This document shows positions 5,189 through 49,541 of a stretch of 64,000 nt of DNA, one piece after another. Positions within the stretch are counted from its first letter, which is position 1, and the number at the start of each line of letters is the position of its first letter. Origin of the DNA: Gemmatimonadota bacterium (lineage in GTDB: Bacteria; Gemmatimonadota; Gemmatimonadetes; Longimicrobiales; Gaopeijiaceae); NCBI GenBank assembly GCA_039589315.1, contig JBDHHQ010000027.1, forward strand, positions 43,067 to 107,066, in the 5' to 3' direction. The notes under the pieces were generated by a model. That model saw only the letters and a list, made by a program, of their open reading frames with translations, did no database searches and was not told the DNA's origin. A program made the translations under genes and the position numbers.

Positions 5189-5288
5189 TTGCCAACGTTT
5201 TGCCAACGCTCCGTGAGAACAGACGCAACCAGACGCAATAAGCCTGAGGGAACTTGAAACCGGCGGGCGCAAGCCCACGTGGGTTCGA
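5189..5288 (+). repeat. att-like site A: arm repeats + 3' part of tRNA-Ser(TGA)
   Basis: TTGCCAACG x2, CAGACGCAA x2, CCTGAGGGAA, then CTTGAAA-CCGGC-GGGCGCAAGCCC-AC-GTGGGTTCGA. Confidence 0.7.
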
Positions 5289-5519
5289 GCCGAGCGGCCG
5301 GGTAGGTATCGGATGCGGGAATGGGCGCCGGATCCCGAACCCCCGGAGCCGTGCATTGGGGCGAATGGGGGAAGGGCAGATTGGCCGGGGACGCTGCTCA
5401 GTCGTGCAGGGACTGCTCGGACACGGGGCCCCGCGGGAAGTGTGGTCCCGGGATCGGGTCGATCTCCGAGTGAATGGACCTGGCCCTGGCCTCGCGCTCG
5501 GACGTGCCGAGCAGGCGCG

Positions 5520-7874
5520 TCAGTTGATGCGCTGACGAAGCTCGATCGCTTTACTGCGCGCCGCCTCGACGCCCGGCTGGAACTCCGGATCGGCGTCCTT
5601 CCACAGCTCGGCAAAACGCTCGTACCAGCCGGCGGAGCCCTCGAGATTCCCGAGCTGCTCGTTGATCTCGGCGAGTCGGAGGAGGGCCGGCGGAAACCGG
5701 TAGCCGTCGCCCCGCAGCCGATCAATCTCGGTGCGGGTCACGTATTCCTCGTACTCCCGGGCGGCGGACTCGAGGTCACCCTGTGCCTCGTACAGCTGGC
5801 CGAGGGCGTATCGCACCCGCATCCGGCACAGGCCCGAACAGTCCAGCTTGAGAGGCCGAAGCTCGTCGATTCCCCTTTCGGTGTCTCCCCCCGTGGCAGC
5901 CAGCAAGGCAGCGACCTCCCTGGGGTCCTCCTGCTCGAGGCCGCCCCAGTATTGCTCCGGGACCTCTTCCAGAAACTCCGCGTAGAGGGAGTCCGCCATG
6001 TCCGGCAGCCCGAGGTCCAAGAGGGCACGGGCCATGAACAGGTAGGAGCGGTCGAGTGGGTCCATCTCGTGGAGGGGGAACTCCTCCATGGCCTGCGCGA
6101 GGTGGGCGTGGGCACGCGCCGTGTCCTGGTAATACGTGGCGATCGAAATGGCCCTTATGGCTTCGCCGTTCAGGGCCCAGCGATCCAGACCCACGGCTTC
6201 GCTGGAGCGAACGAACTCGCGTCCGAAGACGTCCGCATCGGTGAGTCGTCCGTTGATCATGCCGATGATCCAATGCCCCGCGTTGCCGTAGAAGCGGGCC
6301 AACGGATTGCGGGGGAATTCCTCGACGAGGACCTCGAACAGGGAGTCCGCAGCTTCGTACGCGCCGGCAGCGAATGCCACCCAGCCCGGATACATCCAGG
6401 CCGAGTACGACTCCGGAAAGACCCCCTTCCACTCGGCCAACGTGGCCTCGACCTCCTCTCGCTTCTCCAGCAGGAAGAGCGTACCAGCCAGATTGCTGTA
6501 GTTGGTGCTGCTCGCGTCCGTCTCGATCGCCAGCCGGTACGCCCGCTCGGCATCGGCGTACTTGCCCGAACGGTTGTAGACGTTGCCCAGATTGTTGAGC
6601 GCCACGTGGTTGGTGGGATCGAGCTCCAATACGTTCTCGTAGCCGCGCGAGGCCGCGTCCAGATCTCCCACCACGAGATGGAAGTACGTGGCGTCCGCTA
6701 CGAAGCGCTCTACAGGCGGTAGGCGGTCACGCAGCTCGTACGCGCGTGTGTAGGCCTCGACCTGCTCGCTACGGCTTCCAAAGGTGTTGCCGAGCTGGAC
6801 GCCCAGCTTCCGATGGGCCATGGCAAAATCCGGGTCGACGCGCGTCGCCTCCCGGTACAGGTCCACCGCACGGATGGCGTCCCCGCGTCGCTCCACGTCG
6901 TATGCCTGTGTGTACAGGCGCAGCGCCTCGAGTGACGAGGTCGTGACCTGGCTCAGCGGCGGGTCGGCGGCGATCGACCCGAGGGGCTCTCCAGCCTTGT
7001 CACGGATGGCGCGCCCAAGCCGGTCGATGGCCTCCACAAGGCGGGTCGTGTCGGGCACGGTCTCGCGGAACGACGCCAGCACTTGGCCCGTCGACGCGTC
7101 GACCAGTCGAGCAGTCATGACGGACCGTCCGCCCAGCGGAGCCACGTCCCCGGTGAGCACAGCCTTCAATCCCTCCCGGACCGCCAGCTCGGTGGCGAGC
7201 TCTTCGTCGAGACCACCCGAAGGGTCTCGCTCCATGCGCTCGAGCGCGCTTCTCAGTGGTGTCGGCTGCATCAACCGGATCATGGGTGACCGGTCCAGGC
7301 TCAACCGCAGCGCCTCGGTGACGAGCTCGGAGGGCACACTCGGCTGGCTGCTCGCGAAGTCGGCGAGGACGACGAGCTCGCCCTCCTCGAACACACCCTG
7401 TGCGACGAGCGTCCCCGGATCCCCGATTCCCAGGGCGCGCATGCTCAGGTAACTGGTCCCGATCACCCCAAGGAGAGCGAAGGCGAGCACGCCGCCCAGC
7501 ATGGCGCGGTTCCACGTGAGGAGCCGTGCGAGTCGCTCGTAGGAAGGGTGGCCTTCGAAGCTCGCGAACGCCCTCGGGGAGGACTCTATCGCGGGCGCTG
7601 TTTCCTCCTCGGGGACTTCGGGTTCGCCATCGTCGAGCGGTTCGGCTGCGGCAGCCCCCGGCCCCTCCTGAACGAACGCCGTGGCAACTACCAGCGGGAG
7701 GCCGAGCAGCAGCACGAGCATGGCTCCGGTGAACGTCCAATCGGGCAGCAGACCGCGCTCGATGAACGTGTCGATGACCTCGAGGACCGCCCAGCCGGCG
7801 CCGAGGAAGATCAACGTGACCTGCCAGATCGAGCGTCGGTGGAACTCTTGGATGATGGCTCGAATCTGATTCAT
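5520..7874 (-). CDS. Membrane-anchored TPR protein with TolB-N-like domain
   Basis: 784 aa; 'EFHRRSIWQV' + 3 TM segments; 'VTTSSLEALRLY'; TPRs; C-terminal 'LWKDADPEFQ'. Confidence 0.8.
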   Translation of the reverse strand: MNQIRAIIQEFHRRSIWQVTLIFLGAGWAVLEVIDTFIERGLLPDWTFTGAMLVLLLGLPLVVATAFVQEGPGAAAAEPLDDGEPEVPEEETAPAIESSPRAFASFEGHPSYERLARLLTWNRAMLGGVLAFALLGVIGTSYLSMRALGIGDPGTLVAQGVFEEGELVVLADFASSQPSVPSELVTEALRLSLDRSPMIRLMQPTPLRSALERMERDPSGGLDEELATELAVREGLKAVLTGDVAPLGGRSVMTARLVDASTGQVLASFRETVPDTTRLVEAIDRLGRAIRDKAGEPLGSIAADPPLSQVTTSSLEALRLYTQAYDVERRGDAIRAVDLYREATRVDPDFAMAHRKLGVQLGNTFGSRSEQVEAYTRAYELRDRLPPVERFVADATYFHLVVGDLDAASRGYENVLELDPTNHVALNNLGNVYNRSGKYADAERAYRLAIETDASSTNYSNLAGTLFLLEKREEVEATLAEWKGVFPESYSAWMYPGWVAFAAGAYEAADSLFEVLVEEFPRNPLARFYGNAGHWIIGMINGRLTDADVFGREFVRSSEAVGLDRWALNGEAIRAISIATYYQDTARAHAHLAQAMEEFPLHEMDPLDRSYLFMARALLDLGLPDMADSLYAEFLEEVPEQYWGGLEQEDPREVAALLAATGGDTERGIDELRPLKLDCSGLCRMRVRYALGQLYEAQGDLESAAREYEEYVTRTEIDRLRGDGYRFPPALLRLAEINEQLGNLEGSAGWYERFAELWKDADPEFQPGVEAARSKAIELRQRIN

Positions 7875-8224
7875 GCAGCGCGGAACGCGTGGGGGAGAAA
7901 GCTATCCGGGCATGGGCGCCGTGGGGATGACGGGTCACCTTGAATGTCCGACCCCGACCGCGCCGCGTCAACGGATTCGTCACGGAGGCACGACGATTTC
8001 GTCGCGTAACGGGCCACCGGTGCGGGACGGAGCTTCCCTCTTCGGGTCCGCTCGAACTGAGGCGGCTCGACCACCAGCTTTCCGCGACACTTCAGGTGGC
8101 GGAGCAGGCCGTTCGCCTGCGCGGTCGGGTCGACCGCCGAGGGAATGTTGCGAGGGGGCGGTCTCCCTCCCGAGTTTGACTCCCGTATCGGAGTTCCCCG
8201 CGCCCTCCCGATCAGGAGCCAGCG

Positions 8225-8668
8225 ATGACCGAAGCCACCGCAGCACCCGTACCCAGGCCCAGACACCTGCTGGTGATCGGAATCCTCGCCGTGCTCTGGG
8301 ACAGCATGGGGGCCTTCGACTACGTCATGACCCAGACGCGGAACGAGGCGTACATGAGCAACTTCACCCCTGAGCAGCTCGAGTTCTTCTACAACTTCCC
8401 GAGCTGGCTGGTGTTCTTCTGGGCCATCGCCGTCTGGGGTGGTCTGGCCGGTGCAGTGCTGCTGCTCATGAGAAAGCGGCTGGCCGTGCCAGTTCTGCTC
8501 ACGTCGTTCGTGTGCATGGTCGTGACGGCCATCCACAACTTCTTCATCGCCAACGGGCTGGAGATCATGGGCACGGGAGGCGCGATCTTCTCGGCAGCCA
8601 TCTTCCTGATCGCACTGGGGTTGTGGTTGTATGCCCGGGCCATGGCGGAGAAGGGGGTGCTGGTCTAG
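8225..8668 (+). CDS. Hypothetical 4-TM membrane protein
   Basis: 147 aa, AGGAG RBS, hydrophobic helices, 'GAFDY..WAIAVWGG'. Confidence 0.75.
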   Translation: MTEATAAPVPRPRHLLVIGILAVLWDSMGAFDYVMTQTRNEAYMSNFTPEQLEFFYNFPSWLVFFWAIAVWGGLAGAVLLLMRKRLAVPVLLTSFVCMVVTAIHNFFIANGLEIMGTGGAIFSAAIFLIALGLWLYARAMAEKGVLV

Positions 8669-8718
8669 CCGACAGCAGGATGCCGCCTGGGTCGCCTGAC
8701 AACAGCGCCAACCTGCGG

Positions 8719-10101
8719 CTACCGCTCCACGATCGCCACTCCGTAGGGATCGTTGCCGACGCCGGTGACGGTGGCGACCACGCTGCGTGACCGAAGGTCG
8801 ATCACGTACAGGTAGCCGATCTCCTGCGAGAGGGGCCTGGCAGAGGGTCCGCCGCTGATCACCGCGTACCTCCCGTCGGGCGTGACCGCCGAGCCCTTCG
8901 GGCGCGCGGTCCGTCCATCCGCCCGGACGAGCGGAATGCGCGCGAGCTCCGCGTCGGGCTCACCGGCGAGCGCCGCCTCGAGGTCTACGATCGAGACGTT
9001 GTTCGCGCGCACGTTCGGAACGATCACGTGCCGTCCGTCGGGCGTGACGGTGGCGATCAGCGGATGGGTCTGCTCGGCCGGATCGTCGGTGCCGACGAGG
9101 ACGCGGGCGACCTCGGCGGCATCGGCACCGGCGGCCGCCCGGTCGACATCGATGACCGAGAGCGTGTTTCCGGCCGACCCGTCCCGCTGGCTTCCCCCGT
9201 TGCTCACGATGATGTGGCGCCCGTCGGGCGTGGCCGTGATTCCCCACGGGCCGAGCTGGGTCGGGACGCGAGCGATCTCCGCGCTGGGATCGCCTCGCAG
9301 CGCACGGGCGACGTCGATGACCGATACGTCATTCGTTCCGCCGTTGGCGGAGAAGAGATAGGGGTTACCGCTCCCGTCACGACCCAGCGCCAGCCCGTTC
9401 GGGTCCGGGAAGCAGCCCCAGCCGGGATCCGGGGAGAGTACCGACAGATCCCGGGGTGGCCCGTACGGCGGGACGTACGGTACAGGGTAGTCGGGACAGT
9501 CGAAGCCGGGGGAGCCGAGGGCCAGCTCCACGGTGGCGCGCAGGCTGCCGGTCCGTCGGTCGACGAAGGTGATGCGATTGCCGCCGTCTTCGGTCAGGTG
9601 GTTCTCGGCGTTGGCGATGGCGAGCAGCTCGGGCAGGAGCACGATGCCGAGGGCTCCGAAGCCCCCTGAATCCAAATGGCGCCGAAGCGCGTTGGCGGTC
9701 CGGTCATTCCGCGGATCGAGCAGGTCGCCCATGTCGAGGACCGCGATCGCGCCGCGGCCGCCGTGCTGACCGAACTCCGCGTTGTCGATGGCGCCATGGT
9801 GATTCACCACGTAGACCGTGCGGCCGTCCTCGCTCACGACCAGGTTGGCCGGGTCGCCCAGCAGCTGCCCGTCCATCCGGTCCAGCGCCACCTTGCTGCG
9901 GCCGACGATCGCGTTCGGCGTGTGGTCGTTGGCCGGATCGAGCGCGGCCTCGAACGAGATGGCGTACAGGTAGGGGAGTCGCCGCCCCGCCACGAGGACG
10001 TGACGACTCTGGCCCACCGCCTCCTGTGCCGAGAAGGCCGCCGAGAGCACGGCCGCCGCGGCGAGCGTCAGACGTCCGAGCCACGACTGCGGGGAAGCCA
10101 T
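8719..10101 (-). CDS. Secreted YncE/YVTN beta-propeller protein
   Basis: Signal peptide; repeated 'TPDGR..V.N..VSVID'; AAGGAG RBS. Confidence 0.8.
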   Translation of the reverse strand: MASPQSWLGRLTLAAAAVLSAAFSAQEAVGQSRHVLVAGRRLPYLYAISFEAALDPANDHTPNAIVGRSKVALDRMDGQLLGDPANLVVSEDGRTVYVVNHHGAIDNAEFGQHGGRGAIAVLDMGDLLDPRNDRTANALRRHLDSGGFGALGIVLLPELLAIANAENHLTEDGGNRITFVDRRTGSLRATVELALGSPGFDCPDYPVPYVPPYGPPRDLSVLSPDPGWGCFPDPNGLALGRDGSGNPYLFSANGGTNDVSVIDVARALRGDPSAEIARVPTQLGPWGITATPDGRHIIVSNGGSQRDGSAGNTLSVIDVDRAAAGADAAEVARVLVGTDDPAEQTHPLIATVTPDGRHVIVPNVRANNVSIVDLEAALAGEPDAELARIPLVRADGRTARPKGSAVTPDGRYAVISGGPSARPLSQEIGYLYVIDLRSRSVVATVTGVGNDPYGVAIVER

Positions 10102-10180
10102 CGGATCACTCCTTCGAGGGGATGGGCGCTAGGGCAAGTCAGAGCGGACTCAGGTGGTGTAGCCGATCCGGTGCCCGGAA

Positions 10181-10247: not shown

Positions 10248-10298
10248 CCGACGGTACCCACCCCGCGTTGCTCGGCCCGTTGACCAACGACGCAGTCC

Positions 10299-12872
10299 TC
10301 AAATCCACGCAGCCGGAAACACCTCATTGTAGCGCTGGATCGCGTCGGCGGTGCCGCAGATGTAGACGCTGTCGTCCGAGGTGAGCCGGAAGGAAGCGGG
10401 GAAGGACATGATCACGTCGCCGTCCCGCTCGACCGCTACGACCGTGCAGCCCGTGCGCTCCCGGATCCGCTCGGACAGCGGGTGCTTGCCGACCAGGCGG
10501 CCCGCTTCCACCCGGGTCAGCTTGATGCGGGGCTGTAGCGAGACGGTCTCGTCCAAGACGTGGTGGGCGAGGAGCTGGCCCGCGACCTGGCTCACCGACA
10601 CGGCGAAGTCTGCGCCCGCACGTTGGATCTGGGCGACGTTGTCCGGCACCGCGGCGCCGGCAATGATCGGCAGGTCGGGTGAATGCTGGCGCAGGACCGT
10701 CGCCGCCACGACGGTCGCGCCGACCGTCTCCAGTGCCAAGATCGCGACGCGCGCCTCGGCAAGGGGAATCTGAGCGAGCACCTCCGGATCGGACAGGTCG
10801 CCGACTACATCGACGTTCGGCCCCTCTTGTGCGTCCACCACGCACAGGTGCTCGTCCACGGCCGACAGGATCTCCACGAGCTTCTGACCTAGCTCACCCG
10901 TCCCGATCACGACGATCACGCCCTCGTCCCTGATCGGTCGGGCCATCTCGTTGAGACGCTCGATGCTCTCCGGCGTGCCGGCCGCGACGAGGATCGTGCC
11001 CGCTGCGATGGTCTCGCCGGGCCCCGGGGGCAGGTGGAGCTGACCCTCGCGCCACCGCCCGACGACGTTGGCACCGGTGCGCGTGCGCAGCTCGACCTCG
11101 GCGAGGGACCTGTCGGCCAGGGGGCTTCCGTCGTGTACACGCAGCTCCGCCACTTCGAGCTGACGACTGAGTGGCCGGAAGCCCGTGACCCGGGGACTGA
11201 TCCTCGCGCTGGCGCGGGAGCTCAAGACCGCCGCCAGGACGTGGTACGGTGCGAACGTCACGTTCGCGCCCGCCGAGCGCAGTGGGGAGCGGAGGCGGGG
11301 GTCCGTGATCATCGCGACGATCGGCCCCTCGAAGCCGGCCTCACGTGCCCCCAGCGTCACCAGGACGTTGCTGTCGTCGTTGCCGTTGAGGACCAGAGCA
11401 CGGGCGTGGGCAAGCGGAGCCAGGTCGACTTCCTGCTCGGAGAGCCGCGCGTGGACGACGTGATGTCCGCGCTCATATAGGCGACGCGCGACCGCCTCGT
11501 CCTCCTCGATCAGCAGGTACCGCATGCCCCGGCGCTCCAGCTCTTCCAGGAGCGAATCGACCGCCGGCCCGTGGCCATACAGAACGACCGCGTCGCTGAC
11601 CTTCGGCAGCGTGAAGGGACCTCGCGCCTCTTGTAGCCCGCTGGGCAGGCCGTCCTCGCCGAACTTGTTGGGGAGGAGAACTCCCACGCGCGCGCCGGCT
11701 TCCAGAGGCGTCGCTCGACCCTCGAGCAGTATCGCGCAGCCCTTCAGGCCAAGTGGCGTGAACAGGTTGAGGAGGAAGGCCGTGAAGATGAGGACGGAGA
11801 AGACGGCGGGCTCGATCGAGCCCTGGGCGAGCGCCAAAGAAGCGAGGATGAACGCCAGCTCGGCGCGTCCACACATGCCCACGCCCACGGTCAGAGCCTC
11901 GAACCCGGGCAGCCCCATGCGAAGCGCCATGCTCCCCGCGCTCACGATCTGACCCACGATCACGGCCGTGGTCAGGATCAAGAGGAAGGCGACGCCGGAC
12001 CCGCTGATGTCGAACGTGATCGAGAAGCCGAGCGAGATGAAGAAGATGGGCCCCAGGAACGAGTACGCGATTCCGTACGAGCGATCCGCAACCACCCTCA
12101 CGAGATTCGGGTGCGCCACCTTCTCTTCGAAGAACAGGCCGGCCATGTAGGCGCCCAGGATCACGTGCAGCCCGATCGCCTCGGCGAAGAGGCCCGCCGC
12201 CAAGGCGACCAGAAGCACGAAGGTGAATCCCTTTCCACCCTCTGAGCGGAAGGGCAGGGTCAGGCTCGGATACACATAGCGGCCGAGCACGAACGCGAGG
12301 CCGAAGAACATCGTCACCTTGAGCAGGGTGACCACGATGTTGAGCGGCTCGAAGGAGCCGCCCGAGAGCACGCCCACGATCAGCCCGAAGAAGACCAGCG
12401 TCAGCAGGTCGTCGATCACGCAGGACGCCACGACCACTCTGGCCACGCGCGTGTCGGCCAGCCCGAGATCTTTGAGCGTCTTGAGGGTGATCACCACGGC
12501 CGTTGCCGTCATGGTCAGGCCCACGAACGTTGCGCCGACCGGGTCGAGGCCGAACGCGGTGGCGACACCGAAGCTGACGCTGAACGGCACGATCGCACCA
12601 ACCACCGCCACGCCGAGCGAGCGCTTCAGCGCGTCGAAGAACTCTCCGGGCTGCGTCTCCACGCCGGCGTGGAACATCAGGAAGAAGATCCCGATCTCGG
12701 CCAGGAGCGTCACCGCCTCGGAGGGCTCGATCCAACCGAGCACGGCCGGGCCCACCAACACGCCGACGATGAGCTCGCCCATGATCGTGGGTAGCCCGAG
12801 CGGCCGGAGAGTGACCGCGACGATCCAGATGCCGGCCAGGAGGATCAGCAGGTCGACGGCGATTTCGTGCAT
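10299..12872 (-). CDS. CPA2 cation:proton antiporter fused to tandem TrkA/RCK N and C domains
   Basis: ~380-aa TM domain ('GELIVG', 'VIDDL', 'GRAELAF'); then 'LYGHGP', 'VIGTGELG' RCK_N and two RCK_C domains. Confidence 0.87.
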   Translation of the reverse strand: MHEIAVDLLILLAGIWIVAVTLRPLGLPTIMGELIVGVLVGPAVLGWIEPSEAVTLLAEIGIFFLMFHAGVETQPGEFFDALKRSLGVAVVGAIVPFSVSFGVATAFGLDPVGATFVGLTMTATAVVITLKTLKDLGLADTRVARVVVASCVIDDLLTLVFFGLIVGVLSGGSFEPLNIVVTLLKVTMFFGLAFVLGRYVYPSLTLPFRSEGGKGFTFVLLVALAAGLFAEAIGLHVILGAYMAGLFFEEKVAHPNLVRVVADRSYGIAYSFLGPIFFISLGFSITFDISGSGVAFLLILTTAVIVGQIVSAGSMALRMGLPGFEALTVGVGMCGRAELAFILASLALAQGSIEPAVFSVLIFTAFLLNLFTPLGLKGCAILLEGRATPLEAGARVGVLLPNKFGEDGLPSGLQEARGPFTLPKVSDAVVLYGHGPAVDSLLEELERRGMRYLLIEEDEAVARRLYERGHHVVHARLSEQEVDLAPLAHARALVLNGNDDSNVLVTLGAREAGFEGPIVAMITDPRLRSPLRSAGANVTFAPYHVLAAVLSSRASARISPRVTGFRPLSRQLEVAELRVHDGSPLADRSLAEVELRTRTGANVVGRWREGQLHLPPGPGETIAAGTILVAAGTPESIERLNEMARPIRDEGVIVVIGTGELGQKLVEILSAVDEHLCVVDAQEGPNVDVVGDLSDPEVLAQIPLAEARVAILALETVGATVVAATVLRQHSPDLPIIAGAAVPDNVAQIQRAGADFAVSVSQVAGQLLAHHVLDETVSLQPRIKLTRVEAGRLVGKHPLSERIRERTGCTVVAVERDGDVIMSFPASFRLTSDDSVYICGTADAIQRYNEVFPAAWI

Positions 12873-12956
12873 GGGCACAACCTAGCTTGGGCCAGGCCGG
12901 AGATCGATCGGCGGCCGCCGACTTTCGGGCGCCTGCGAGCGTGAGAGGGTCCGGGC

Positions 12957-14990: not shown

Positions 14991-15004
14991 GTATCAGAGA
15001 CTCT

Positions 15005-30595: not shown

Positions 30596-30679
30596 GGGCC
30601 TGCGCTGTCAACTGACCGCCGGCCGTTGGAGTCGGCGGATCTCCGCGCGCAGGGGGGAACCAGCCAGAGGAGAGACGTC

Positions 30680-30870
30680 GCGGGATCCGTCTCCAGGGGA
30701 GCGCTCTATACCCCGTTGGAGCGTCTGGAGGAGAAGGTGGGCTGGAATCCGAGCTCGGCGAGCCCACCGCGGTGCGGGGTGGAAGACCCAAGCGGTTCTG
30801 GAAGGTGACTCCTAAGGGCCTCGCTCAGCTTCGGCACGGCCTGGAAGCGATGGAGAGCATGTCACACCGT
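30680..30870 (+). pseudogene. Frameshifted, 5'-truncated PadR
   Basis: 'VSRGALYTPLERLEEK' then, in another frame, 'RGGRPKRFWKVTPKGL'. Confidence 0.7.
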
Positions 30871-30965
30871 TTCCGGTCGGTGGCCCGTCAGGGCGTCGCC
30901 GAGAGAGTGAAGACCGCCAACGCGTGGTCCACTCATCTGCCGATGCTCTTCGCGCTACCGCAGTA

Positions 30966-31619: not shown

Positions 31620-31798
31620 GTCGTTCCAACCGGCGGCGCGGCTGCCGCTACGGGTGCGACCCGCGTCAATCGACGTGGGCTGCCGGGAGCGTTTGTGGCG
31701 AAGGTCACATTCTAGGACGGTGCCGGGGATATTGCCAATAGAGGCTATAGTGGGCCCGACCCTGGCCGGGACCCGTGCTAACCGAACAAAGGCTGGCG

Positions 31799-32620
31799 AT
31801 GAGCTCACGACGACGGACCTTCGAAGCGGCGGCCCTCGCGCTCTTCTTCCTCGGCGTGGCGATCCTGACAGTCTTCGGCTTCGCGATGCGCGACTGGATG
31901 CCACCCGCGGCGTCGCGGCACGCGGCGGGCATGGACGGGATGATCGAGTACCTGCTCTACACCACCGGAGCCATCTTCGTGATCGGGCATCTGGTCCTCA
32001 TAGCCTTCATCTGGCGGTTCGGACGAGGACGGCGTGCGGACAACCCCGAAACGAAGCCCAGGACCGAGCGGCTCTGGTCGATCGCACCAGTCGTCATCAT
32101 GGCCCTCGTCTCCGAGGTCGGCGTGTTGGTCATCGGGCTCCCCGTCTGGGACGAGATCTACGGTGACTTTCCTGAGGACGCGCTCGTCGTGGACGTGGCG
32201 GCACGACAGTTCGAATGGATCATCCGCTACGCGGGAAGTGACGGTGAGTTCGGCCGCACGGATCCCGAGCAGATCGACGGTGCGTCGAACCCGACGGGCC
32301 TCGACGCCGGCGACCCGCGGGCTGCGGACGACGTGGTCGTCCGGAACGTGCTGCGGCTCCCCGTGAACCGACCGATCTACCTGCGCCTGAGGTCGCACGA
32401 CGTCCTGCACAGCTTCTCGGTGGCCGCCTTCCGCGTGAAGCAGGACATCGTGCCCGGCATCGTGGGCAGCACCCAGTTCGTGCCGACCCGAGTGGGCACC
32501 TTCGAGATCGGCTGCGCCGAGCTGTGTGGCCTGGCGCACTATCGCATGCGGGGCCGCGTGATCGTCATGTCCGAGGATGAATACGACCAGTGGCAGCTCG
32601 ACCAGGGAGGAGCCGAATGA
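31799..32620 (+). CDS. coxB: Cytochrome c oxidase subunit II (CuA)
   Basis: TM helices; 'QFEW', 'DVLHSF', 'CAELCGLAHYRM'. Confidence 0.95.
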   Translation: MSSRRRTFEAAALALFFLGVAILTVFGFAMRDWMPPAASRHAAGMDGMIEYLLYTTGAIFVIGHLVLIAFIWRFGRGRRADNPETKPRTERLWSIAPVVIMALVSEVGVLVIGLPVWDEIYGDFPEDALVVDVAARQFEWIIRYAGSDGEFGRTDPEQIDGASNPTGLDAGDPRAADDVVVRNVLRLPVNRPIYLRLRSHDVLHSFSVAAFRVKQDIVPGIVGSTQFVPTRVGTFEIGCAELCGLAHYRMRGRVIVMSEDEYDQWQLDQGGAE

Positions 32621-34416
32621 CCGGTCACGCACCCCTCCCGTTCTGGCGGCGCTACATCTTCTCCACGGACCACAAGATCATCGGGTTGCAGTACATCCTG
32701 ACCGCGGCCTTCATGGCCATCGTGGCCGTGGGGCTGTCGGTTCTGATCCGCCTGCAGATGGCCTGGCCACAGACGCTCTGGCCGGCCCTGGAGCGCATTC
32801 TGCCGCGGGCGTACGAAGGCGGGGTGCTCCTGCCCGAGTTCTACATCAGCATGGTCACGATGCACGGGACCATCATGGTGTTCTTCGTGATCTCCCTCGC
32901 TCTCGTGAGCGGCATCGGCAACTTCATCATCCCCCTGCACGTCGGGGCGCGGGACATGGCGTACCCGTTCCTCAACATGCTGTCGTACTGGACCATCGTA
33001 CCGGCCTGTCTGATCATGCTCGCCTCCTTCTTCGTAGAGGGGGGCGCCGCCGCCGGGGGTTGGACCTCGTATCCGCCACTGTCCGCGCTGCCAGGGGCTT
33101 TACCGGGATCGGGCCTGGGGCAGACGCTCTGGCTCCTGGGGATGGCCCTCTTCATCGCCTCCTTCACGATGGGAAGCCTCAACTTCCTCACGACCATCCT
33201 GAACCTGAGAACCCGGGGCATGTCGCTCATGCGGATGCCGCTCACCACCTGGACGATGTTCGTCTCGTCGGTGCTCGGTATTCTGGCCTTCCCGCCGCTC
33301 ACCGCGGCCGCGATCATGCTGCTCTTCGACCGACACGGAGGCACGAGCTTCTTCCTCCCAGGCGGTCTGGTCGTGGGAGGTCAGGTGCTCCCGTTCGACG
33401 GTGGAACTCCACTCCTGTTCCAGCATCTGTTCTGGTTCCTGGGCCACCCCGAGGTCTACGTGCTGGTCCTCCCGGCCCTCGGCATCGCCTTCGATGTGGT
33501 GGCCACCTTTGGACGCCGGCCGGTGTTCGGTTACCGGACCACGGTGTGGTCGCTACTCGTCGTCGCGGTCCTGAGCATGATCGTGTGGGGGCACCACATG
33601 TTCACGAGCGGTATGAACCCGTACGTCGGCGAGTATTTCTCGATAGTGACCGTGGCGATCACCCTGCCTTTCGCGGTTATCGGTCTGAACCTGATCGCCA
33701 GCCTGTGGCGTGCCGAGCTGCGCCTGACCACGGCCATGCTCTTCGCGATCGGCATCATCTCGGCCGTGGGCACCGGTGGCCTGGGAGGGCTGTACCTCGG
33801 AACGGCAGCCTCGGACATCTACTTCCACGACTCGGTGTTCGTCGTTGGGCACTTCCACTTCATGATCGGCGTGGTGACGTCGTTCGGGATCTTCGCCGCG
33901 CTCTATTTCTGGTTCCCCAAGATGTTCGGGCGGCACATGAGTGAGACCCTGGGCAAGGTGCACTTCTGGCTCACCATCGGGCCCGTCTTCGCCGCCTTCA
34001 TAGCAATGCACTACCTCGGCTTGGGGGGTGCGTTGCGCCGGGTGTACGATCCCACCGTGTACGAGTACATCCGGCCCCTGCAGCAGATGAACGTCTGGAT
34101 CACCTACGCCCTGATCGTCGCCGTCGTGGCGCAGCTCGTCTTCTTCGTGAATCTCGTCTACGGGATGCTGTGGGGCCGACGTGCCGAAGAGAATCCGTGG
34201 CAGGGTGCCACGCTGGAGTGGACCACGCCCTCACCGGCCCCACACCTGAACTGGGCCGAGCCCCCGACCGTGTTCCGGGGCCCGTACCAGTATCGCGTGA
34301 ATGGCACGGCCGAAGGGTATACGCCGCAGCACGTTCCCGACCGAATGGACCAATCGGCCGCTGAGGCGCTCCGGGGCCCGCCGGCGGAACCGACGCTCGC
34401 AGGAGGTCCGGAATGA
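32617..34416 (+). CDS. coxA: Heme-copper oxidase subunit I, A1-type, K-channel residues substituted
   Basis: 'MHGT', 'GARDMAYP', 'GHPEVY', 'WGHHM', 'HFH', 'RR'; PFAVI in place of PT/SxxK. Confidence 0.95.
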   Translation: MTGHAPLPFWRRYIFSTDHKIIGLQYILTAAFMAIVAVGLSVLIRLQMAWPQTLWPALERILPRAYEGGVLLPEFYISMVTMHGTIMVFFVISLALVSGIGNFIIPLHVGARDMAYPFLNMLSYWTIVPACLIMLASFFVEGGAAAGGWTSYPPLSALPGALPGSGLGQTLWLLGMALFIASFTMGSLNFLTTILNLRTRGMSLMRMPLTTWTMFVSSVLGILAFPPLTAAAIMLLFDRHGGTSFFLPGGLVVGGQVLPFDGGTPLLFQHLFWFLGHPEVYVLVLPALGIAFDVVATFGRRPVFGYRTTVWSLLVVAVLSMIVWGHHMFTSGMNPYVGEYFSIVTVAITLPFAVIGLNLIASLWRAELRLTTAMLFAIGIISAVGTGGLGGLYLGTAASDIYFHDSVFVVGHFHFMIGVVTSFGIFAALYFWFPKMFGRHMSETLGKVHFWLTIGPVFAAFIAMHYLGLGGALRRVYDPTVYEYIRPLQQMNVWITYALIVAVVAQLVFFVNLVYGMLWGRRAEENPWQGATLEWTTPSPAPHLNWAEPPTVFRGPYQYRVNGTAEGYTPQHVPDRMDQSAAEALRGPPAEPTLAGGPE

Positions 34417-35027
34417 GCCGCCTGACGTTGGCGGGGACGATCCCCCTCGACGTCCCGCAGGGCGCAGGACGCGGCGCCCCACCCCCGCCGTCTGGCCGCG
34501 GCCTCTATCCCATGTTCCTCATGGCCGTGCTGGCCACGGTCACCATGCTCTTCGCGGCGTTCACCGCGGCCCTCCTGATCCGGCGCTCCGGATCGGACTG
34601 GATCGCCATCGAGCTGCCGGCCATCGCATGGGTGAACGGCGGTGTGATCGTCGTCTCCTCGGCCCTTCTGGAGCTGGCCAGGAGGGCGCTCCGCTCAGGT
34701 GCTGCATCCGTCGCCCCGCTATGGCTGGGGCTCGCGGCCGCCCTCGGACTGCTGTTCCTCGCCGGACAGATAGTGGCCTGGCGCGCGTTGATGGCCGAGG
34801 GCGTCTTTCTCCCTTCCAGTCCTCACGCTGCCTTCTTCTACATGCTGTCGGCGGTCCACGGCGCCCACGTCCTCGGGGGCCTCGGTGCGCTGGGGTGGAC
34901 ACTCCGGAGCGCGCTGAGAGGAGCATACACCGCAACCATGCACCGGGGGTTGAGCCATGCGGCGGTCTACTGGCACTTCGTGGGAGCGCTCTGGATCTAC
35001 CTTCTCATCCTCATGCGGATCGCCTAG
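34413..35027 (+). CDS. Cytochrome c oxidase subunit III (first paralog)
   Basis: 'MLFAAF', 'FFYMLSAVHGAHV', 'YWHFV'. Confidence 0.9.
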   Translation: MSRLTLAGTIPLDVPQGAGRGAPPPPSGRGLYPMFLMAVLATVTMLFAAFTAALLIRRSGSDWIAIELPAIAWVNGGVIVVSSALLELARRALRSGAASVAPLWLGLAAALGLLFLAGQIVAWRALMAEGVFLPSSPHAAFFYMLSAVHGAHVLGGLGALGWTLRSALRGAYTATMHRGLSHAAVYWHFVGALWIYLLILMRIA

Positions 35028-35030
35028 GAG

Positions 35031-35648
35031 ATGCCAATGAGCGAGACAGGCACGATGCCGGCGCCTGTATACTGGGCGGGAGGCGACAGTCCGTTCGCGA
35101 TGTCGTGGCAGAAGCTGATGATGTGGGTCTTTCTCGTGACGGACGCATTGCTGTTCGCGGGCTTCCTCGCGGCCTACGCCTTCATCCGGCTCGCCAGTGG
35201 GTCGTGGCCCGAGCAGGGCGAGGTCTTCAACATGACGCTGATCGGCGTCATGACGTTCACGCTCATCACGTCCAGCGCGACCATGGCCTCCGCCGTCGGC
35301 GCGGCGCACCGAAAAGACCTGAAGACGGCTACGCGGTTCGTTCTACTCACGGCTCTGGGCGGCGCGATCTTCCTGGGGATGCAGGCCACGGAGTGGACGC
35401 AGCTGATCCACGAAGGAGCGCGCCTGTCCGGGAATCCGTGGGGGGCGACGGCCTTCTCGTCGTTCTTCTTCATGATCACGGGCTTCCACGGAACGCACGT
35501 GCTCATCGGCGTGATCATCCTCCTCATCACGGCGGCGCGATCGCGATCCGGCACGGCGACGGCCGACGGCGTCGAGTTGGCAGGCCTGTACTGGCACTTC
35601 GTGGACCTCGTCTGGGTGTTCATCTTCACGACCTTCTACCTGATCTGA
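35031..35648 (+). CDS. Cytochrome c oxidase subunit III (second paralog)
   Basis: 'KLMMWVFL.TD', 'FFMITGFHGTHV', 'GLYWHFVDLVW'. Confidence 0.92.
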   Translation: MPMSETGTMPAPVYWAGGDSPFAMSWQKLMMWVFLVTDALLFAGFLAAYAFIRLASGSWPEQGEVFNMTLIGVMTFTLITSSATMASAVGAAHRKDLKTATRFVLLTALGGAIFLGMQATEWTQLIHEGARLSGNPWGATAFSSFFFMITGFHGTHVLIGVIILLITAARSRSGTATADGVELAGLYWHFVDLVWVFIFTTFYLI

Positions 35649-35658
35649 CGGAGCCAAC

Positions 35659-35961
35659 ATGGAAGGCACCATTTCGTACAGGACCTACTGGCTGATCTGG
35701 GTCGTGCTGCTCGTGCTTACGCTCGTCATGATCGGGATCGAGGCCATGGCCCTGCCCACGGGAATCGCCATCCTCCTGCTATCTGGGGCCATGATGACGA
35801 AGGCTGCCCTGATCGGCGGGTGGTTCATGCACCTCAAGTACGAGACCCGCTTCATCGTAGCCTGTCTCGTGCTGGGGACGTTCCTCACGGCGGCCTTCCT
35901 CGTCTTCCTGCTCGTGCCGGACGGGATCGCCGCCAATCGCATGGCGGAGTATCCACAGTGA
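35659..35961 (+). CDS. Cytochrome c oxidase subunit IV family
   Basis: 3 TM helices; 'KA.LI..WFMHLKYE'. Confidence 0.88.
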   Translation: MEGTISYRTYWLIWVVLLVLTLVMIGIEAMALPTGIAILLLSGAMMTKAALIGGWFMHLKYETRFIVACLVLGTFLTAAFLVFLLVPDGIAANRMAEYPQ

Positions 35962-35984
35962 CCGGAGCAGAAGGCACGCCGGAC

Positions 35985-36110
35985 ATGTTCGTGAACATGC
36001 TCCTGGCCACGGGAGTGCTCATCGGGGCCGTGGCGGCGCTCGTCATAGCCGGATTGGTCGTCTATCACAAGACCGCCCAGGACAGATGGGAGTCGCGCGA
36101 CGCACCTTGA
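35985..36110 (+). CDS. Small single-TM protein in the oxidase operon
   Basis: MFVNMLLATGVLIGAVAALVIAGLVVYHK..; alternative GTG at 35958 overlaps the subunit IV stop. Confidence 0.45.
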   Translation: MFVNMLLATGVLIGAVAALVIAGLVVYHKTAQDRWESRDAP

Positions 36111-36171
36111 CCGCAAATCGGTCTCAGGAAGCGATCGCCGCGATTGAGGTCCCCGGCGGCAGGGGGAACCC

Positions 36172-37137
36172 ATGAAGCACGCAGCATCCGATCGGGTTCT
36201 ACACGGAGCCGCGGGTGGGGCTCTGGCCGGGATCGTCGTGATCGTCTGGTTCTTCGCCATGGACGTCGTGGCCGGCACACCGTTCGATACGCCTGCCCGC
36301 CTCTCCAGTGCGGTGCTGCGAGAAGGGTTCAGTAGGCCCTGGCCCCGGCTGATCGCGCTTTTCACCGTGCTGCACTTCGGGGTCTTCGTATCGCTCGGCG
36401 TGGCCACCACGTGGTCTCTCGACGCCGTGCAGTTGAAGCCCAACGTCATCGTGGGTGCCGTGTTCGGCGTCTTCGTGCTCAACGCGGTGCACTACGTGGG
36501 GCTTCTGGTGACGGGCACGAACCTGCTCACGGTGGTGCCTGTGCTGCAGGTCACAGTGGCGAACCTCCTCGGTGGCGTCCTGATGATGTTCTACCTGCAG
36601 AGGACCCTCGGGGACTCCCCGGAACCGGACCGGAGCGCCGTCGAGCGCCACCCCTTGCTCGTGCACGGGCTGGTGACCGGCGCCATAGGTGCGGTCGCCG
36701 TCGCCATGTGGTTTCTCGCCGTGGACCTCTTCGCGGGCTCACCGCTGCGGACGCCTGCAGTGCTCGGGTCGGCGCTACTCCTCGGCTCCGAAAGCGCCGC
36801 CGATGTCCAGCTCAATCCAAGCGTCATCGCGGCGTACTCGGTGCTTCACCTCGGCGTCTTTGCAGCCGTCGGCATCGCATTCAGCTGGCTAGGGGGCAGG
36901 GTCGAAAGCACGCCCGCGTTTGGGGCTCGCGCCGCAGGGGTACTCGTGCTCCTGGAGGTACTCTTTCTCGGGACTGCGGGCATGGCCAGTGACTGGGTCC
37001 TGCAGGAGCTCGGCTGGCTGACCGTTCTCGTGGCCAACGTCCTGGCGGTCGGGGCGATGGGGGCATGGATCTGGCGGACTCGACCTGGTGGCTGGGGCTC
37101 GGCTCGGTTTGACGGGCCTCCCGGATCTGGACGATGA
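36172..37137 (+). CDS. Membrane protein with two homologous 4-TM repeats, each with a conserved His
   Basis: 'WFFAMDVVAGTPFDTPA..TVLHFGVF' and 'WFLAVDLFAGSPLRTPA..SVLHLGVF'. Confidence 0.8.
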   Translation: MKHAASDRVLHGAAGGALAGIVVIVWFFAMDVVAGTPFDTPARLSSAVLREGFSRPWPRLIALFTVLHFGVFVSLGVATTWSLDAVQLKPNVIVGAVFGVFVLNAVHYVGLLVTGTNLLTVVPVLQVTVANLLGGVLMMFYLQRTLGDSPEPDRSAVERHPLLVHGLVTGAIGAVAVAMWFLAVDLFAGSPLRTPAVLGSALLLGSESAADVQLNPSVIAAYSVLHLGVFAAVGIAFSWLGGRVESTPAFGARAAGVLVLLEVLFLGTAGMASDWVLQELGWLTVLVANVLAVGAMGAWIWRTRPGGWGSARFDGPPGSGR

Positions 37138-37162
37138 GCGAGGGAGACCGTCCGGCGTCTGA

Positions 37163-37285
37163 TCACGGCCTCGGCCCTTCCGAGGCTGATGCGACCCGCT
37201 CCACTTCCGTCATGACGGGGAGCGTGTTCTCGCCCCAGATCTTGCGAATCGTCTCCTCGTCGAAGCCGCGCTGCAGCACCGTCGT
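37163..37285 (-). pseudogene. C-terminal remnant of a membrane (renal-type) dipeptidase
   Basis: 'LQRGFDEETIRKIWGENTLPVMTEVERVA'. Confidence 0.6.
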
Positions 37286-37367
37286 CTCGCAATCTCGCGC
37301 CATGGTGTGGCTTGGGGAGGTCCTGGGAGCGACGCCCCGAAGGAGGTCACCTCGTGACCCGCAGTTC

Positions 37368-38987
37368 ATGCGAACACGGGCTCTGATCGCCGGAATGGTA
37401 CTGTCGACGGGCACCCTTGCCGCCCAGGAACTGCGGCCCGGATTCGTGGATCCTGAACCCGTTCTTCGGGCGGCGGCCGAGGCGATCGGGACCGACCGGC
37501 TCAGGTGCGTTACCATTTCGGGGAGCGGGTACACCGGAATGGTCGGCCAGCAGCGCCTGAACGGCTACGAGGTGGATTGGCCACGTGGCGAGCCTCTGGC
37601 CAATTACACCCGCACCATGGACTGGGAAGCCGAGACCATGGTCGAGGAGTTCGACCGCGAGCCGGGGCGCAACCCAGCGTCGTGGAAGTACGGCCTCGGG
37701 TGGAGGGGAGGCACGCCGCTCCAGGCGAGCTCCCGCCAGCGCTTCGTGGTCAAAGGGCTCCACGGGTGGCACGTGGACGGGCCGGGCGGCGAAGCAGTGG
37801 CCGCTCGACCGGAGGACGTGGAGCGTTGGCAGCTGGACCTGTGGCTCAATCCGCACGGATTCTTGAAGGCTGCGATGAAGCCGGGCGCGAATCCTCGGGG
37901 CGTTTGGCGTTGGGAGCTTGGGGAGATGGGACGGGACGGTGCGACCACCGAGCCCGATAAGGTGACCGTCGTATCGATCACCGTGCTCGACAAGTACCGC
38001 GTGGACGCGACGATCAACTCCGAGCATCTGCTCCAGAGGATCCACACATGGGTACCGGACCCCGTGCTCGGCGACATGAACTACGAGCACGAGTTCACCA
38101 ATGCGAGCTATGTGGACGTGGGAGACGGCGTGCGCTTTCCGACGGGGTGGCATCATCATGAGGGCTGGGACGACAACTTCCAGGCCCAGAGCATCAACGC
38201 CGGCCACAACGCCTTCGGTGGAACCTTCGCGGATGTCCAGCCGAACCGGTGCGACAACCCGGCGACGGTCCCCAATCACGTGCGCCGGGCCAGCTTCCCC
38301 ATCCGTGTGACGACAGAAGAGTTGGCCCCCGGCGTGTGGCTGCTTGGCGGAGCCTCGCACAACAGTGTGGCGGTCGAGTTCGCAGACTACGTCGCGGTCG
38401 TCGAGGCCCCGCTCGACGAGGCGCGCAACCTCGCGGTCATCGATGAGGTCGCGAGGCTCGTGCCGGACAAGCCGATTCGATTCCTGGTGAACACGCACCA
38501 GCATCACGACCACATCGGCGGGCTCCGGACGTACATGCACATCGGCGCCACGATCGTAACACACTGGAAGAACTACGACTTCTACGTCCGCGACGTGTTG
38601 AATTTCGCTCCGAGGACGCTCTCGCCCGACATGGTGTCCCTGTGGCCGCCCACAGAGCTGGCCGAGGGATACCAGTACGAGACGGTCCGGGAGAACCACT
38701 GGCTCAACGACGGATCTCGGACGATGCACATCTCGTACGTGCAGCCCCTCGCTCACGTCGAGGGAATGCTCGTGGCGTATCTGCCCGGCGAGAGGCTCTT
38801 GATCGAGGCTGACCTGTTCGATTGGATGGGACCGCGTAATACGTGGCCGGTCACCGCCACTGCGGCTGGCGAGAGCCTGTACAGGCACGTGCGACGGCTG
38901 GAGCTGGACGTCGAAACGATCGTGCCGATCCATGGGCAACCTGTCCCCTGGGCGGAGTTCGTCCGCTTGGTCGGATCAGGGGGCTAG
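37368..38987 (+). CDS. Secreted MBL-fold metallohydrolase
   Basis: Signal peptide; 'VNTHQHHDHIGG', 'AHVEGML', 'EADL', 'VPIHG'. Confidence 0.87.
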   Translation: MRTRALIAGMVLSTGTLAAQELRPGFVDPEPVLRAAAEAIGTDRLRCVTISGSGYTGMVGQQRLNGYEVDWPRGEPLANYTRTMDWEAETMVEEFDREPGRNPASWKYGLGWRGGTPLQASSRQRFVVKGLHGWHVDGPGGEAVAARPEDVERWQLDLWLNPHGFLKAAMKPGANPRGVWRWELGEMGRDGATTEPDKVTVVSITVLDKYRVDATINSEHLLQRIHTWVPDPVLGDMNYEHEFTNASYVDVGDGVRFPTGWHHHEGWDDNFQAQSINAGHNAFGGTFADVQPNRCDNPATVPNHVRRASFPIRVTTEELAPGVWLLGGASHNSVAVEFADYVAVVEAPLDEARNLAVIDEVARLVPDKPIRFLVNTHQHHDHIGGLRTYMHIGATIVTHWKNYDFYVRDVLNFAPRTLSPDMVSLWPPTELAEGYQYETVRENHWLNDGSRTMHISYVQPLAHVEGMLVAYLPGERLLIEADLFDWMGPRNTWPVTATAAGESLYRHVRRLELDVETIVPIHGQPVPWAEFVRLVGSGG

Positions 38988-39127
38988 ATGCCAACAGGGT
39001 AGAGGCTGGCGGCTGTGCGCAGCAGCTCAGCGTTCTCTCCACCCAGCTCCCTTTGCCAACACTCCGGGATCTGCCTCCGACGCGTGGACAAAGTGAACCA
39101 GTGGGTGATTCCGGGAGGAGAAATCAG

Positions 39128-39460
39128 GTGCGAGGCACCGTGATCGCGTTGGCCGGCCTCCTGTGGGCACCGCATCAGTCGCCCACGTTGAGCATCACGA
39201 TCGTGGGAAACGCCGGAGTGCTTCTTTCGGACGGTGCTACATCGCTGCGCGTAGATCTTCCCTACGAGTCGGGTGCCTTTGGCTACCAGACGTATGATCC
39301 CTCCGACCTGAATCCCCCGGGGTATCAGGTGCGCCCGTGGGATCCGCTGTCGCTGGTCGTCGCCACAGGGGGACTGGTGTCCGTCGCGTTGGTCGCGTGC
39401 TGGATGCCTGCACGTCGGGCGATCGCTGTGGACCCGGCCGCGACGCTTCGGAGCGACTGA
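39128..39460 (+). pseudogene. In-frame chimera: MBL-fold N-terminus + ADOP permease C-terminus
   Basis: GGAGGAG RBS; 'ITIVGNAGVLLSDG..VDLPY' joined to 'YQVRPWDP..ACWMPARRAIAVDPAATLRSD'. Confidence 0.6.
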
Positions 39461-39591
39461 GCCACGAAGCGGTGGTGGGTGACACCGCACCGGAGCAGGG
39501 CGAGGAGCCCCAGGCCCGTTACCGGCAGATCACGCCAGGGTACGTCCGGAGCCCGTGCTCGCCGCGTCCCCGCGAGCGACTCAGCGCCACC

Positions 39592-39663
39592 CCTCTCGAG
39601 CTCTTCGGGGGTTTGGCCCTTGCCCTCGCCGTAATCGGGATCTATGGCGTGACGTCGTATTCG
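39592..39663 (+). pseudogene. ADOP permease fragment
   Basis: 'LFGGLALALAVIGIYGVTSYS'. Confidence 0.55.
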
Positions 39664-39952
39664 GGTCCCTCCTCGCTTCCTGGCCCTGGGCCGTGCCACG
39701 GGGCTCCCCGGAGATGGGCGTCACTGGTCACGTCGAGTAGCAGAATGGGGTGGGGCACCCCTCGGCGAGCAAGGAGGGCCAAGATGCGAGCCTCGACACG
39801 AGATCACGATGCCTGACCAGGCGCAGATCTTCTTCGCTCTGTACCCGGTCCGGACATGGCCACCTTGGTCAGCCCGACGCCGTTGAGGGTGATCGAGACC
39901 GCACGATGGACCGAACCCAGTCATTCGGGGCCGATGAAGCTCGACGACTCGC

Positions 39953-40489
39953 TCACAGGTTGTTCGTCTCGTATCCCCTTGCGTATCGCTCTACGTCTTG
40001 AAACAGCCTCTTGAGAATGCGCTTCCCTCTGCCCCAGGCGAACTTCTGGCCTTTGAACGTGACCGAGGCTTCGATGCGGTAGTCCGATTGTCGTCCGCTG
40101 ACATGAGCCGACAACTCACCATTCCAAGCCAAGGCCGACGAGGGAACCGTGGCGACGATGAGGCAATCCTCGGCCTTGATTCGCTCGTCCAACTGAGTGA
40201 TCGAGATCCCCTGCTCCGCAATGCCACACAGTAATCCAAGAAGCACATAGCCATACCGGTGCGAGAGGGCCACGGCATCGCGCGTCTGCGACTGGAGACC
40301 CAGATCTTCGCCGAGCTTCGGTCCCACGGCCGCGGCCAGCCGGGTCGTCAACGGTGTGAACTCGAGAAACTCTTCGGCGCTTTCGGGGAGCTTGGCCTTG
40401 GCGAGGGCGTCGGTAACCATCTCGATGCCAAGGGGATGTCGGAGGAGATCGTGAATCGAATCGATTCCCGACACCTTTGGAGCACTCAT
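39953..40489 (-). CDS. Hypothetical protein
   Basis: 178-aa ORF with GAGG RBS; AT-richer codon use; no recognised motif. Confidence 0.6.
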   Translation of the reverse strand: MSAPKVSGIDSIHDLLRHPLGIEMVTDALAKAKLPESAEEFLEFTPLTTRLAAAVGPKLGEDLGLQSQTRDAVALSHRYGYVLLGLLCGIAEQGISITQLDERIKAEDCLIVATVPSSALAWNGELSAHVSGRQSDYRIEASVTFKGQKFAWGRGKRILKRLFQDVERYARGYETNNL

Positions 40490-40825
40490 GAGGACACCTC
40501 GTTGGCAGGACGAGCGTTGCTGAAGAAGCCTCACCCCCCAACGCCGGCGGGCTCCTTATCGCGCGTCAGGACCCGGGGCCTTCCTCGCCGAAGGGCTGGT
40601 CCGCTTCTGGTCCTGTAGCACATAGTAGACCCGGCGAACGTAGCACGAAATGTCGGCCGGATTAGCGAAGGAAACGCCATGCTCGAGCCAAATCGGCGGC
40701 GGCGGCCACGGTGTCGACTTCGCCGTGGGGTACTACGGGATGGGAGCCAACCCGAGGGCGCCCCGTCCGGTCAGGTCAAGCTCGGGTTCACCTGGCTGTT
40801 TCCGCGGTGAGCGGTCACTCGACGA

Positions 40826-40851
40826 CCCCCGTCCCCGCAGCCAGATACAAC
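40826..40851 (+). repeat. att-like site E (partial arm)
   Basis: CCCCCGTCCCCGCAGCCAGATACAAC; one mismatch to site D (24822-24847); abuts the permease stop codon. Confidence 0.6.
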
Positions 40852-49539: not shown

Positions 49540-49541
49540 AT

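Follow-up and report, generated by a model that had tools for sequence, protein, structure and literature searches.

A worn array of integration junctions that probably records serial insertion at a tRNA-Ser(TGA) gene in a Gemmatimonadota genome

Introduction

How does a stretch of bacterial chromosome come to be divided into blocks of genes by copies of one intergenic element, all pointing the same way? The question is raised by 64,000 nucleotides of a Gaopeijiaceae genome (Gemmatimonadota; assembly GCA_039589315.1, contig JBDHHQ010000027.1, positions 43,067 to 107,066 of the forward strand), a stretch called the window throughout, in which five related elements lie on the + strand at 5189-5288, 10181-10247, 16491-16576, 24757-24883 and 40826-40851. 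A preliminary description, made from the sequence alone, had taken them for attachment-like (att) sites and proposed that serial integration at a tRNA-Ser gene had built an integron-like stack of non-autonomous modules, mobilised in trans. The five intergenic elements, their positions and their common strand are borne out. The reading that we favour, and consider probable, is that they are damaged right-end junctions of tyrosine-integrase elements inserted at tRNA-Ser(TGA), and that the array results from serial integration, the loss of integrases and left arms, the decay of distal sites and reshuffling.

G codes denote genomes, L codes individual loci or contigs and C numbers contigs; G000 is the source genome, and the window is G000:C27:43067-107066. 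The G000 assembly measures 6.67 Mb in 288 contigs, with 95% completeness and 5.07% contamination. Pfam scans covered the open reading frames (ORFs) of the window and 19 array ORFs from other contigs, part of the small ORFs being left out.

Results

Anatomy and copies of the junction

What is the element? A profile scan of G000 recovers 15 copies of a junction of about 190 bp on five of the 288 contigs (one on C1, ten on C27, of which five in the window, one on C93, two on C142 and one on C184), together with a weak sixteenth copy on C66. Eight copies are full-length, every one of them outside the window, and they read in the same order: first a TGCCAAC pair and a 10-bp repeat pair, then a variable spacer and a conserved box, and finally a second repeat pair, the CTTGAAA core and the 3' half of tRNA-Ser(TGA). 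The composite layout given in the preliminary description is a real unit, whole in these eight copies and in none of those of the window. When the eight are compared, the motifs are 92-97% identical, the spacers 59-78% and the upstream flanks 35%. Of 24 sites from G000 and its relatives (some of them duplicate records), 19 have 134-136 bp between arm and core; the remaining five measure 63 (window site A), 125, 137, 145 and 146 bp, two of them off by exactly 10 bp. This constant spacing and the 10-bp steps would be compatible with a protein-DNA complex that respects helical phasing, and we take the parts of the junction to be putative arm-type, Xis-type and IHF-type sites, on the model of lambda attP.

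The intact target gene lies at C1:164791-164868, and a full copy of the junction (C1:167716-167903, its tRNA part at C1:167852) follows it 3.0 kb downstream in the same orientation; a displaced, co-oriented tRNA 3' fragment downstream of the intact gene is likewise found in G022, G406, G499, G509 and G619. The tRNA-Ser(TGA) target, the junction in the anticodon loop, the duplicated tRNA 3' half, the tandem co-oriented sites and the integrase-less blocks of the preliminary description are supported, and the motif is not scattered over the genome: it is confined to five contigs and tied to the tRNA and to integrases. The C1 gene, the sole tRNA-Ser(TGA) of the assembly, is 8 nt shorter in its variable arm than the near-identical L021:1866-1951, which may be an assembly slip or a strain variant.

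Did the copies arrive repeatedly, or were they multiplied in place? The arms of G000 are 76-91% alike among themselves and 76-88% identical to those of another genus (G022), hence about equally close, which fits separate arrivals. Multiplication inside the genome, by duplication or by a ~190-bp junction that spread as a miniature repeat, with no repeated arrivals, would account for two adjacent single-gene units of 1.3-1.6 kb (C27:37816-39042 and 39124-40362) that are 89% tandem duplicates, site included, for the 340 bp that the C93 site and the C27:6.2k site have in common at 93%, and for the likeness of window site D to the C1 arm (97% identity over 126 bp). We regard it as very improbable for the array as a whole, given the divergence of most arms, their conserved motifs set among free spacers and unrelated flanks, and the fact that they are about as close to the arms of G022 as to one another.

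Five worn copies in the window

The sequence ACCANACGCA occurs seven times in the window, always on the + strand, where 0.39 occurrences are expected and none of 100 shuffles reaches seven. The five sites are decayed copies of the right-end junction, none of them full-length, separated from core to core by about 5.0, 6.3, 8.4 and 16.0 kb. They are, with the remnant of a left arm:

5189..5299, + strand: site A; arm pair at 5190-5207, one repeat pair, core CTTGAAA at 5253-5259, tRNA-Ser 3' half up to the T loop
10174..10264, + strand: site B; proximal box and repeat pair only, the arm pair being absent
16491..16577, + strand: site C; one repeat, core CTTGAAA at 16528-16534, tRNA-Ser 3' half almost complete, the right-arm pair being absent
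16593..16661, + strand: left-arm remnant of the C-D unit; IHF-like motif at 16593-16603, one TTGCCAACG repeat at 16646-16654 (nhmmer, E 3e-4)
24757..24882, + strand: site D; right arm minus one arm repeat, truncated at the core and abutting non-tRNA DNA
40819..40851, + strand: site E; 33-bp remnant of the proximal box (nhmmer, E 0.11)

Site A is 72 bp short of a full arm, its arm-to-core distance being 63 bp against 135. An exact CTTGAAA is found in sites A (5253) and C (16528) only, not in three copies as had been described; site B has a degenerate core, CTCCAAG, followed by a damaged tRNA half. The motif spacing of the left-arm remnant after site C matches that of the complete element of G509 described below; the name IHF-like for its first motif is a label that we assume. 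No intact RNA gene is found within the window by ARAGORN and Rfam, and base composition gives no signal that separates its blocks. Just 5' of site D, at 24667-24756, lies the start of a short ORF without a Pfam hit, presumably similar to the N terminus of an IS110 transposase.

Two further small repeats accompany the sites. The first is a GC-rich insert of about 90 nt at the T-loop position after several sites and after other tRNA-like ends, with ten matches on seven contigs; a copy of a tRNA 3' end stands behind each, and the insert also occurs behind an intact tRNA-Ser(GCT) in G010. It looks like a separate miniature tRNA-targeting element. The second, of about 90 bp, lies 5' of paralogous genes of expanded families, with 12 matches on eight contigs, and opens three array units. 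Their positions are:

window 5289-5299 (start only), and in G000 C27:37.4k, 39.0k and 40.3k, C42, C68, C142, C159, C176 and C184: insert of about 90 nt at the T loop
C1:165046, C27:2635 and 6053, C93:7250, C62, C154, C170, C214 and C257: second repeat of about 90 bp

Integrases at tRNA-Ser

Which enzyme made the junctions? No integrase, relaxase or primase is found among the scanned ORFs of the window or the 19 scanned array ORFs elsewhere, a coverage that does not extend to every small ORF. The earlier statement that no integrase is in view holds for the window itself; a broken tyrosine integrase (C27:40241-41251; PF00589, E 3e-16) lies 1.8-2.8 kb upstream of it on the same contig. About 120 N-terminal profile positions of this gene are missing, its frame is lost near its end, and it adjoins what appears, by eye, to be an IS3 fragment. 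Its relatives adjoin tRNA-Ser genes, with a TGTTACC-type pair overlapping their 3' end, and two elements of this family (G488 and G133) bear a TGTTACC right arm too. As the cognate enzyme of the array it was rejected, the family having TGTTACC arms at both ends and no alignment to the integrase P0121 described next; judged by these arms, it is probably not the enzyme of the TGCCAAC arms. The preliminary description had suggested looking upstream of the window for an intact tRNA-Ser(TGA) and a tyrosine integrase: the tRNA exists, on C1, a contig that is not joined to C27, and the C27 integrase is broken and of another family.

A tRNA tail with TGCCAAC behind it was searched for and matched in 5 of 285 family genomes. 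In one of these, G509, contig C12 carries a complete 15.7-kb element with TGCCAAC arms at both ends: tRNA-Ser(TGA) and the left arm come first, then the genes for integrase P0121 (PF00589), an HTH regulator and DUF3987/helicase, and last the right arm, the core and the tRNA 3' half. P0121 is transcribed away from the tRNA, and in this family the integrase gene stays clear of the left arm. G559 shares its left end with G509 and has an integrase 78% identical to P0121 and terminase genes. The P0121 family counts 506 members at E<=1e-50 among the 8000 candidates scored. Among ten relatives tested with P0121 as query, matches were obtained in G559 and, as a 48% copy at another tRNA, in G406, with no family match in the other eight. 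Nor was a P0121-family integrase found in G000, where the best tblastn match is 25% over 309 aa in an assembly fragmented at the island.

Other candidate enzymes were considered and set aside. A subclade of the TGTTACC integrases lies upstream of tRNA-Ser(TGA) in G406:C90, G500:C3 and G513:C119 (L160, L161 and L157) and suggested a sedentary, integron-like enzyme; this was rejected on finding a displaced 5' tRNA half 5.6-7 kb upstream in G406 and G500, so that tRNA-Ser(TGA) is targeted from both sides. A conserved integrase ending at the right arm is not seen, the genes that abut right arms being varied, and cargo lies directly at the right arm in the autonomous G509 element as well. No IntI was found on the array contigs; two IntI-like genes, recognised by eye, are on C97 and C248, contigs without any site. 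A homologue of the C97 gene follows the first site in G499. Among viral contigs there is no tRNA-Ser element with TGCCAAC arms, one locus having a similar core beside another integrase. One contig of the viral collection, L117, carries TGCCAAC pairs at 2346, 4345 and 6349, 2 kb apart with near-identical flanks, and neither a tRNA-Ser core nor a detected integrase.

Units, relatives and the assembly

How do the units compare with what the relatives carry? Twelve units of the array, of 1.3-16 kb, are bounded at both ends, and one of them contains an integrase, which is broken. A left arm follows 3 of the 15 sites, twice of the TGTTACC type and once, at window site C, of the TGCCAAC type. In the relatives, both-armed units without integrase are found in G584 (3.3 kb, one kinase gene), L145 (1.3 kb) and G619 (5.3 kb), and no integrase is present in the unit next to the tRNA in G000, G022, G406, G499, G584 and G619. 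In G022, of another genus, the tRNA is followed by two units, of 1.9 and 1.3 kb in that order, with a cut arm between them and a full site after the second. The left end of G619 is fused straight to a small gene (52-57% identity) that is internal in G509 and G559, where it is preceded by an arm-like pair; this suggests that G619 is a deletion derivative and that arm-to-arm deletion would be one path to the loss of the integrase.

Could such units be maintained rather than worn? They would then be non-autonomous mini-cassettes: short, both-armed units with one or a few genes of host type, which a visiting satellite-like element would excise, move and re-stack by means of its integrase. The integrase-less both-armed units of G584, L145, G619 and window block C-D speak for it, as do the six integrase-less first units, the persistence of eight full right arms in G000, the shift of the B-C genes as a single block relative to G001, and an integrase gene clear of the left arm, from which integrase-less derivatives form easily. 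We nevertheless judge it unlikely: the TGCCAAC left arm stands at only 1 of the 15 unit starts in G000, no identical unit was found in two different species (the near-identical L020 and L021 carry chromosomal flank and are apparently the same organism), cargo touching the right arm is not special, since the autonomous G509 element shows it too, and the cognate integrase is not found with the P0121 query in G000 or in eight of the ten relatives tested. On that reading the array would serve as a standing platform for gene shuffling rather than a scrapyard.

The junction core pattern was counted in G000, which has eight, and in 300 family genomes: three each in G575 and G527, two each in G022, G035 and G584, one in 26 others and none in 269, drafts often missing such repeats. 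Of 31 metagenome loci with an exact arm pair, 12 are tRNA-Ser junctions of the TGCCAAC type, several of them duplicates, and no integrase is present in the examined DNA of these 12; a strict 29-base pattern had no match in the metagenome collection. The G527 contig with three junction cores is the same DNA as in G000. As signs of transfer between genera, the L020, L021 and G527 contigs were set aside, chromosomal flank being included at 98-100% and G527's own nqr genes reaching only 67%.

Is the array an artefact of a metagenome-assembled genome, inflated or ordered by mis-assembly or mis-binning? The 288 contigs, the 5.07% contamination, the breaks at repeats and the short C1 tRNA would be expected of one. 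The copies are too divergent for collapsed repeats, a second assembly recovers four sites and links C184 to C142, and window 45212-64000 is recovered in G527 at 99.3-99.9%, window 5-41 kb being known from one assembly; we hold such an artefact to be extremely improbable. The conserved genes that precede the tRNA map to C1, and those that follow it (in G619, G488 and G010) to C34, so that the island should lie between these two contigs, which are unjoined.

Cargo of the window

The blocks between the sites, and the gene pair before site A, hold the following:

4452..5143, + strand: HigB-like toxin (4452-4763) and HTH antitoxin (4823-5143), by Pfam
5300..10173, strand not assigned: block A-B; TPR protein and a 460-aa unannotated protein
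10265..16490, - strand: block B-C; thiolase, enoyl-CoA hydratase-domain protein and Na+/H+ antiporter with TrkA domains
16662..24756, + strand: block C-D; 4Fe-4S protein, NrfD, molybdopterin oxidoreductase and a 347-aa unannotated gene
24883..40818, strand not assigned: block D-E; HATPase_c protein, PadR and ABC permease, cytochrome c oxidase operon and metallo-beta-lactamase-fold protein

HigBA had been thought able to stabilise the stack. Pfam supports both the toxin and the antitoxin; they are the last genes of the unit that starts with the broken integrase upstream, ending some 50 bp short of site A, and their effect could extend only to excisions that take in their own unit.

Part of block A-B (8124-10143) is 88% identical in G001, of the same genus, where it sits 6 kb behind a site and a possible site remnant follows it in the place of B. 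The B-C genes form in G001 a single 6.1-kb block at 86-91% identity, in permuted order, whose neighbours are genes located 45 kb further along in the window; 86-91% falls within the 83-93% of syntenic genes elsewhere. Block boundaries in relatives had been proposed to coincide with the sites: the B-C block has its limits no more than about 40-190 bp from sites B and C, and no site is visible at its ends in G001. With the A-B and B-C genes present in G001 at such identities, an active integron-like stack of fresh cargo is unsupported in the window. By sequence comparison, the region is best read as a zone of long-standing plasticity at the level of the genus, in which some boundaries do coincide, and not as a stack of recent arrivals. 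Contig C96 of G001, compared with window 10-64 kb and C55, shows common gene blocks in permuted order with their orientation retained.

C-D is the sole block of the window with TGCCAAC repeats at both ends, its right junction (D) lacking the core, and its operon has no match in the five genomes tested (40 candidates scored per genome). The oxidase operon of D-E is 74-77% identical to that of another genus. The cargo of units outside the window comprises sulfatase, TPR/adenylate-cyclase, BTAD, Kelch, kinase and ECF sigma genes. Past site E, window 49669-60818 holds two hydantoinase B genes, one hydantoinase A gene and two nucleobase permeases, with a lower GC content of 58-63% at 50-57 kb.

Discussion

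The model that we propose for the array combines repeated integration at one target with subsequent decay. An incoming circle would recombine within the 7-bp anticodon loop, restoring the tRNA and displacing earlier DNA outward. Deletions would then strip the integrase and mostly the left arm, so that cargo and right arm remain, and later deletions and local rearrangements would erode the distal sites and reorder the genes. The broken gene upstream of the window would be a relic of a second integrase family, with TGTTACC arms, that used the same tRNA-Ser site. The 15 copies are likely the trace of insertions that, one after another, piled up gene blocks behind tRNA-Ser(TGA), a known process of unusual length here, and the window likely represents the island's old and distal end. 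Mobilisation of its blocks in trans today is unlikely, because the five sites are damaged, a left arm is present in one of the four blocks and the cognate integrase family is not found in the assembly.

Several observations sit uneasily with this model. Simple ageing outward from the tRNA leaves unexplained why site D, although distal, matches the arm closest to the tRNA at 97%. A single integrase remnant among 12 bounded units is below what random decay might leave, and true tandem junctions should show a left arm after each tRNA half, where only 3 of the 15 unit starts do. The copy at C27:6109-6297 is in the opposite orientation. In the stretches of G001 examined, a single site (C234) is recognisable beside two remnants, the tRNA-Ser junction of this genome not being assembled. 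Finally, C27 is not joined to the tRNA contig C1 and contigs end at repeats, so that the order and the distance of the two are not shown.

Taken alone, the window is a modest result, likely the worn end of a tRNA-Ser island. The array is long, with eight exact junction cores in G000 against at most three per genome in 300 family members, and its analysis yields, for a poorly studied phylum, one family of att sites and two of integrases at tRNA-Ser, G509 offering a ready integrase/att pair. The top-ranked matches of the open-access literature give no account of a TGCCAAC-arm att family or of a Gemmatimonadota tRNA-Ser array.

Which known systems does it resemble? As in the tandem ssrA islands of Dehalococcoides, many co-oriented target-gene fragments behind one RNA gene bound tandem blocks of niche genes; those islands, 16 with and 15 without an integration module, the latter read as cis-mobilisable, involve the tmRNA T loop, a serine recombinase and a 20-bp repeat, whereas here we find the tRNA-Ser(TGA) anticodon loop, tyrosine integrases and a structured 135-bp arm, and the integrase-less share is about half there against 11 of 12 bounded units here (PMC3146451). 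The cis-mobilisable elements (CIMEs) that arise by accretion, of the ICESt1/ICESt3 type, are likewise bereft of integration and transfer genes and lie in tandem at one att site (PMC5704250), but they keep attL and attR, where here mostly the right arm remains, both arms being found in G584, G619 and L145; moreover, the parent elements here look satellite- or prophage-like (helicase, repressor, terminase) and not conjugative.

Growth anchored at a tRNA by successive integration, tRNA-Ser(TGA) included, is also described for the tycheposon islands of Prochlorococcus (10.1101/2020.12.28.424599) and the additive flexible islands of Alteromonas (PMC4898812), which have partial tRNAs, broken integrases and older distal material in common with our array; the latter differs in belonging to another phylum and in keeping whole arms in eight copies, not tRNA snippets only. 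Of the Islander signature (PMC4383910), the intact tRNA and the displaced co-oriented 3' fragment are present, and a tyrosine integrase of the TGCCAAC att type is found in G509 and G559. Islander lists four tandems of three or more among 3919 islands (PMC4383910, Table 1), counting integrase-bearing units only; its tandem members each have their own integrase and tRNA fragment, where the array has an integrase in 1 of 12 units, and a broken one.

The qualification of the array as integron-like was overstated, the sites being attR-type junctions of integrative elements. In integrons, co-oriented recombination sites alternate with integrase-less gene blocks. Here, no IntI lies on the array contigs, the sites are tRNA-derived attR junctions made of direct repeats and a tRNA half, and the window blocks are multi-gene, of 5-16 kb, with genes in both orientations. 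Could both-armed, integrase-less units nonetheless move in trans? If so, host genes would become mobile cassettes without an integron. A lineage-wide version, which we consider doubtful, would have Longimicrobiales-type Gemmatimonadota run a tRNA-Ser cassette system, in which both-armed integrase-less units of 1-8 kb capture host signalling and metabolic genes; satellite-like helpers, through their P0121-family integrase, would excise these units and re-stack them in trans into arrays of at least 15 units. If true, such a system would be a tRNA-anchored functional analogue of the integron, invisible to island finders that require an integrase.

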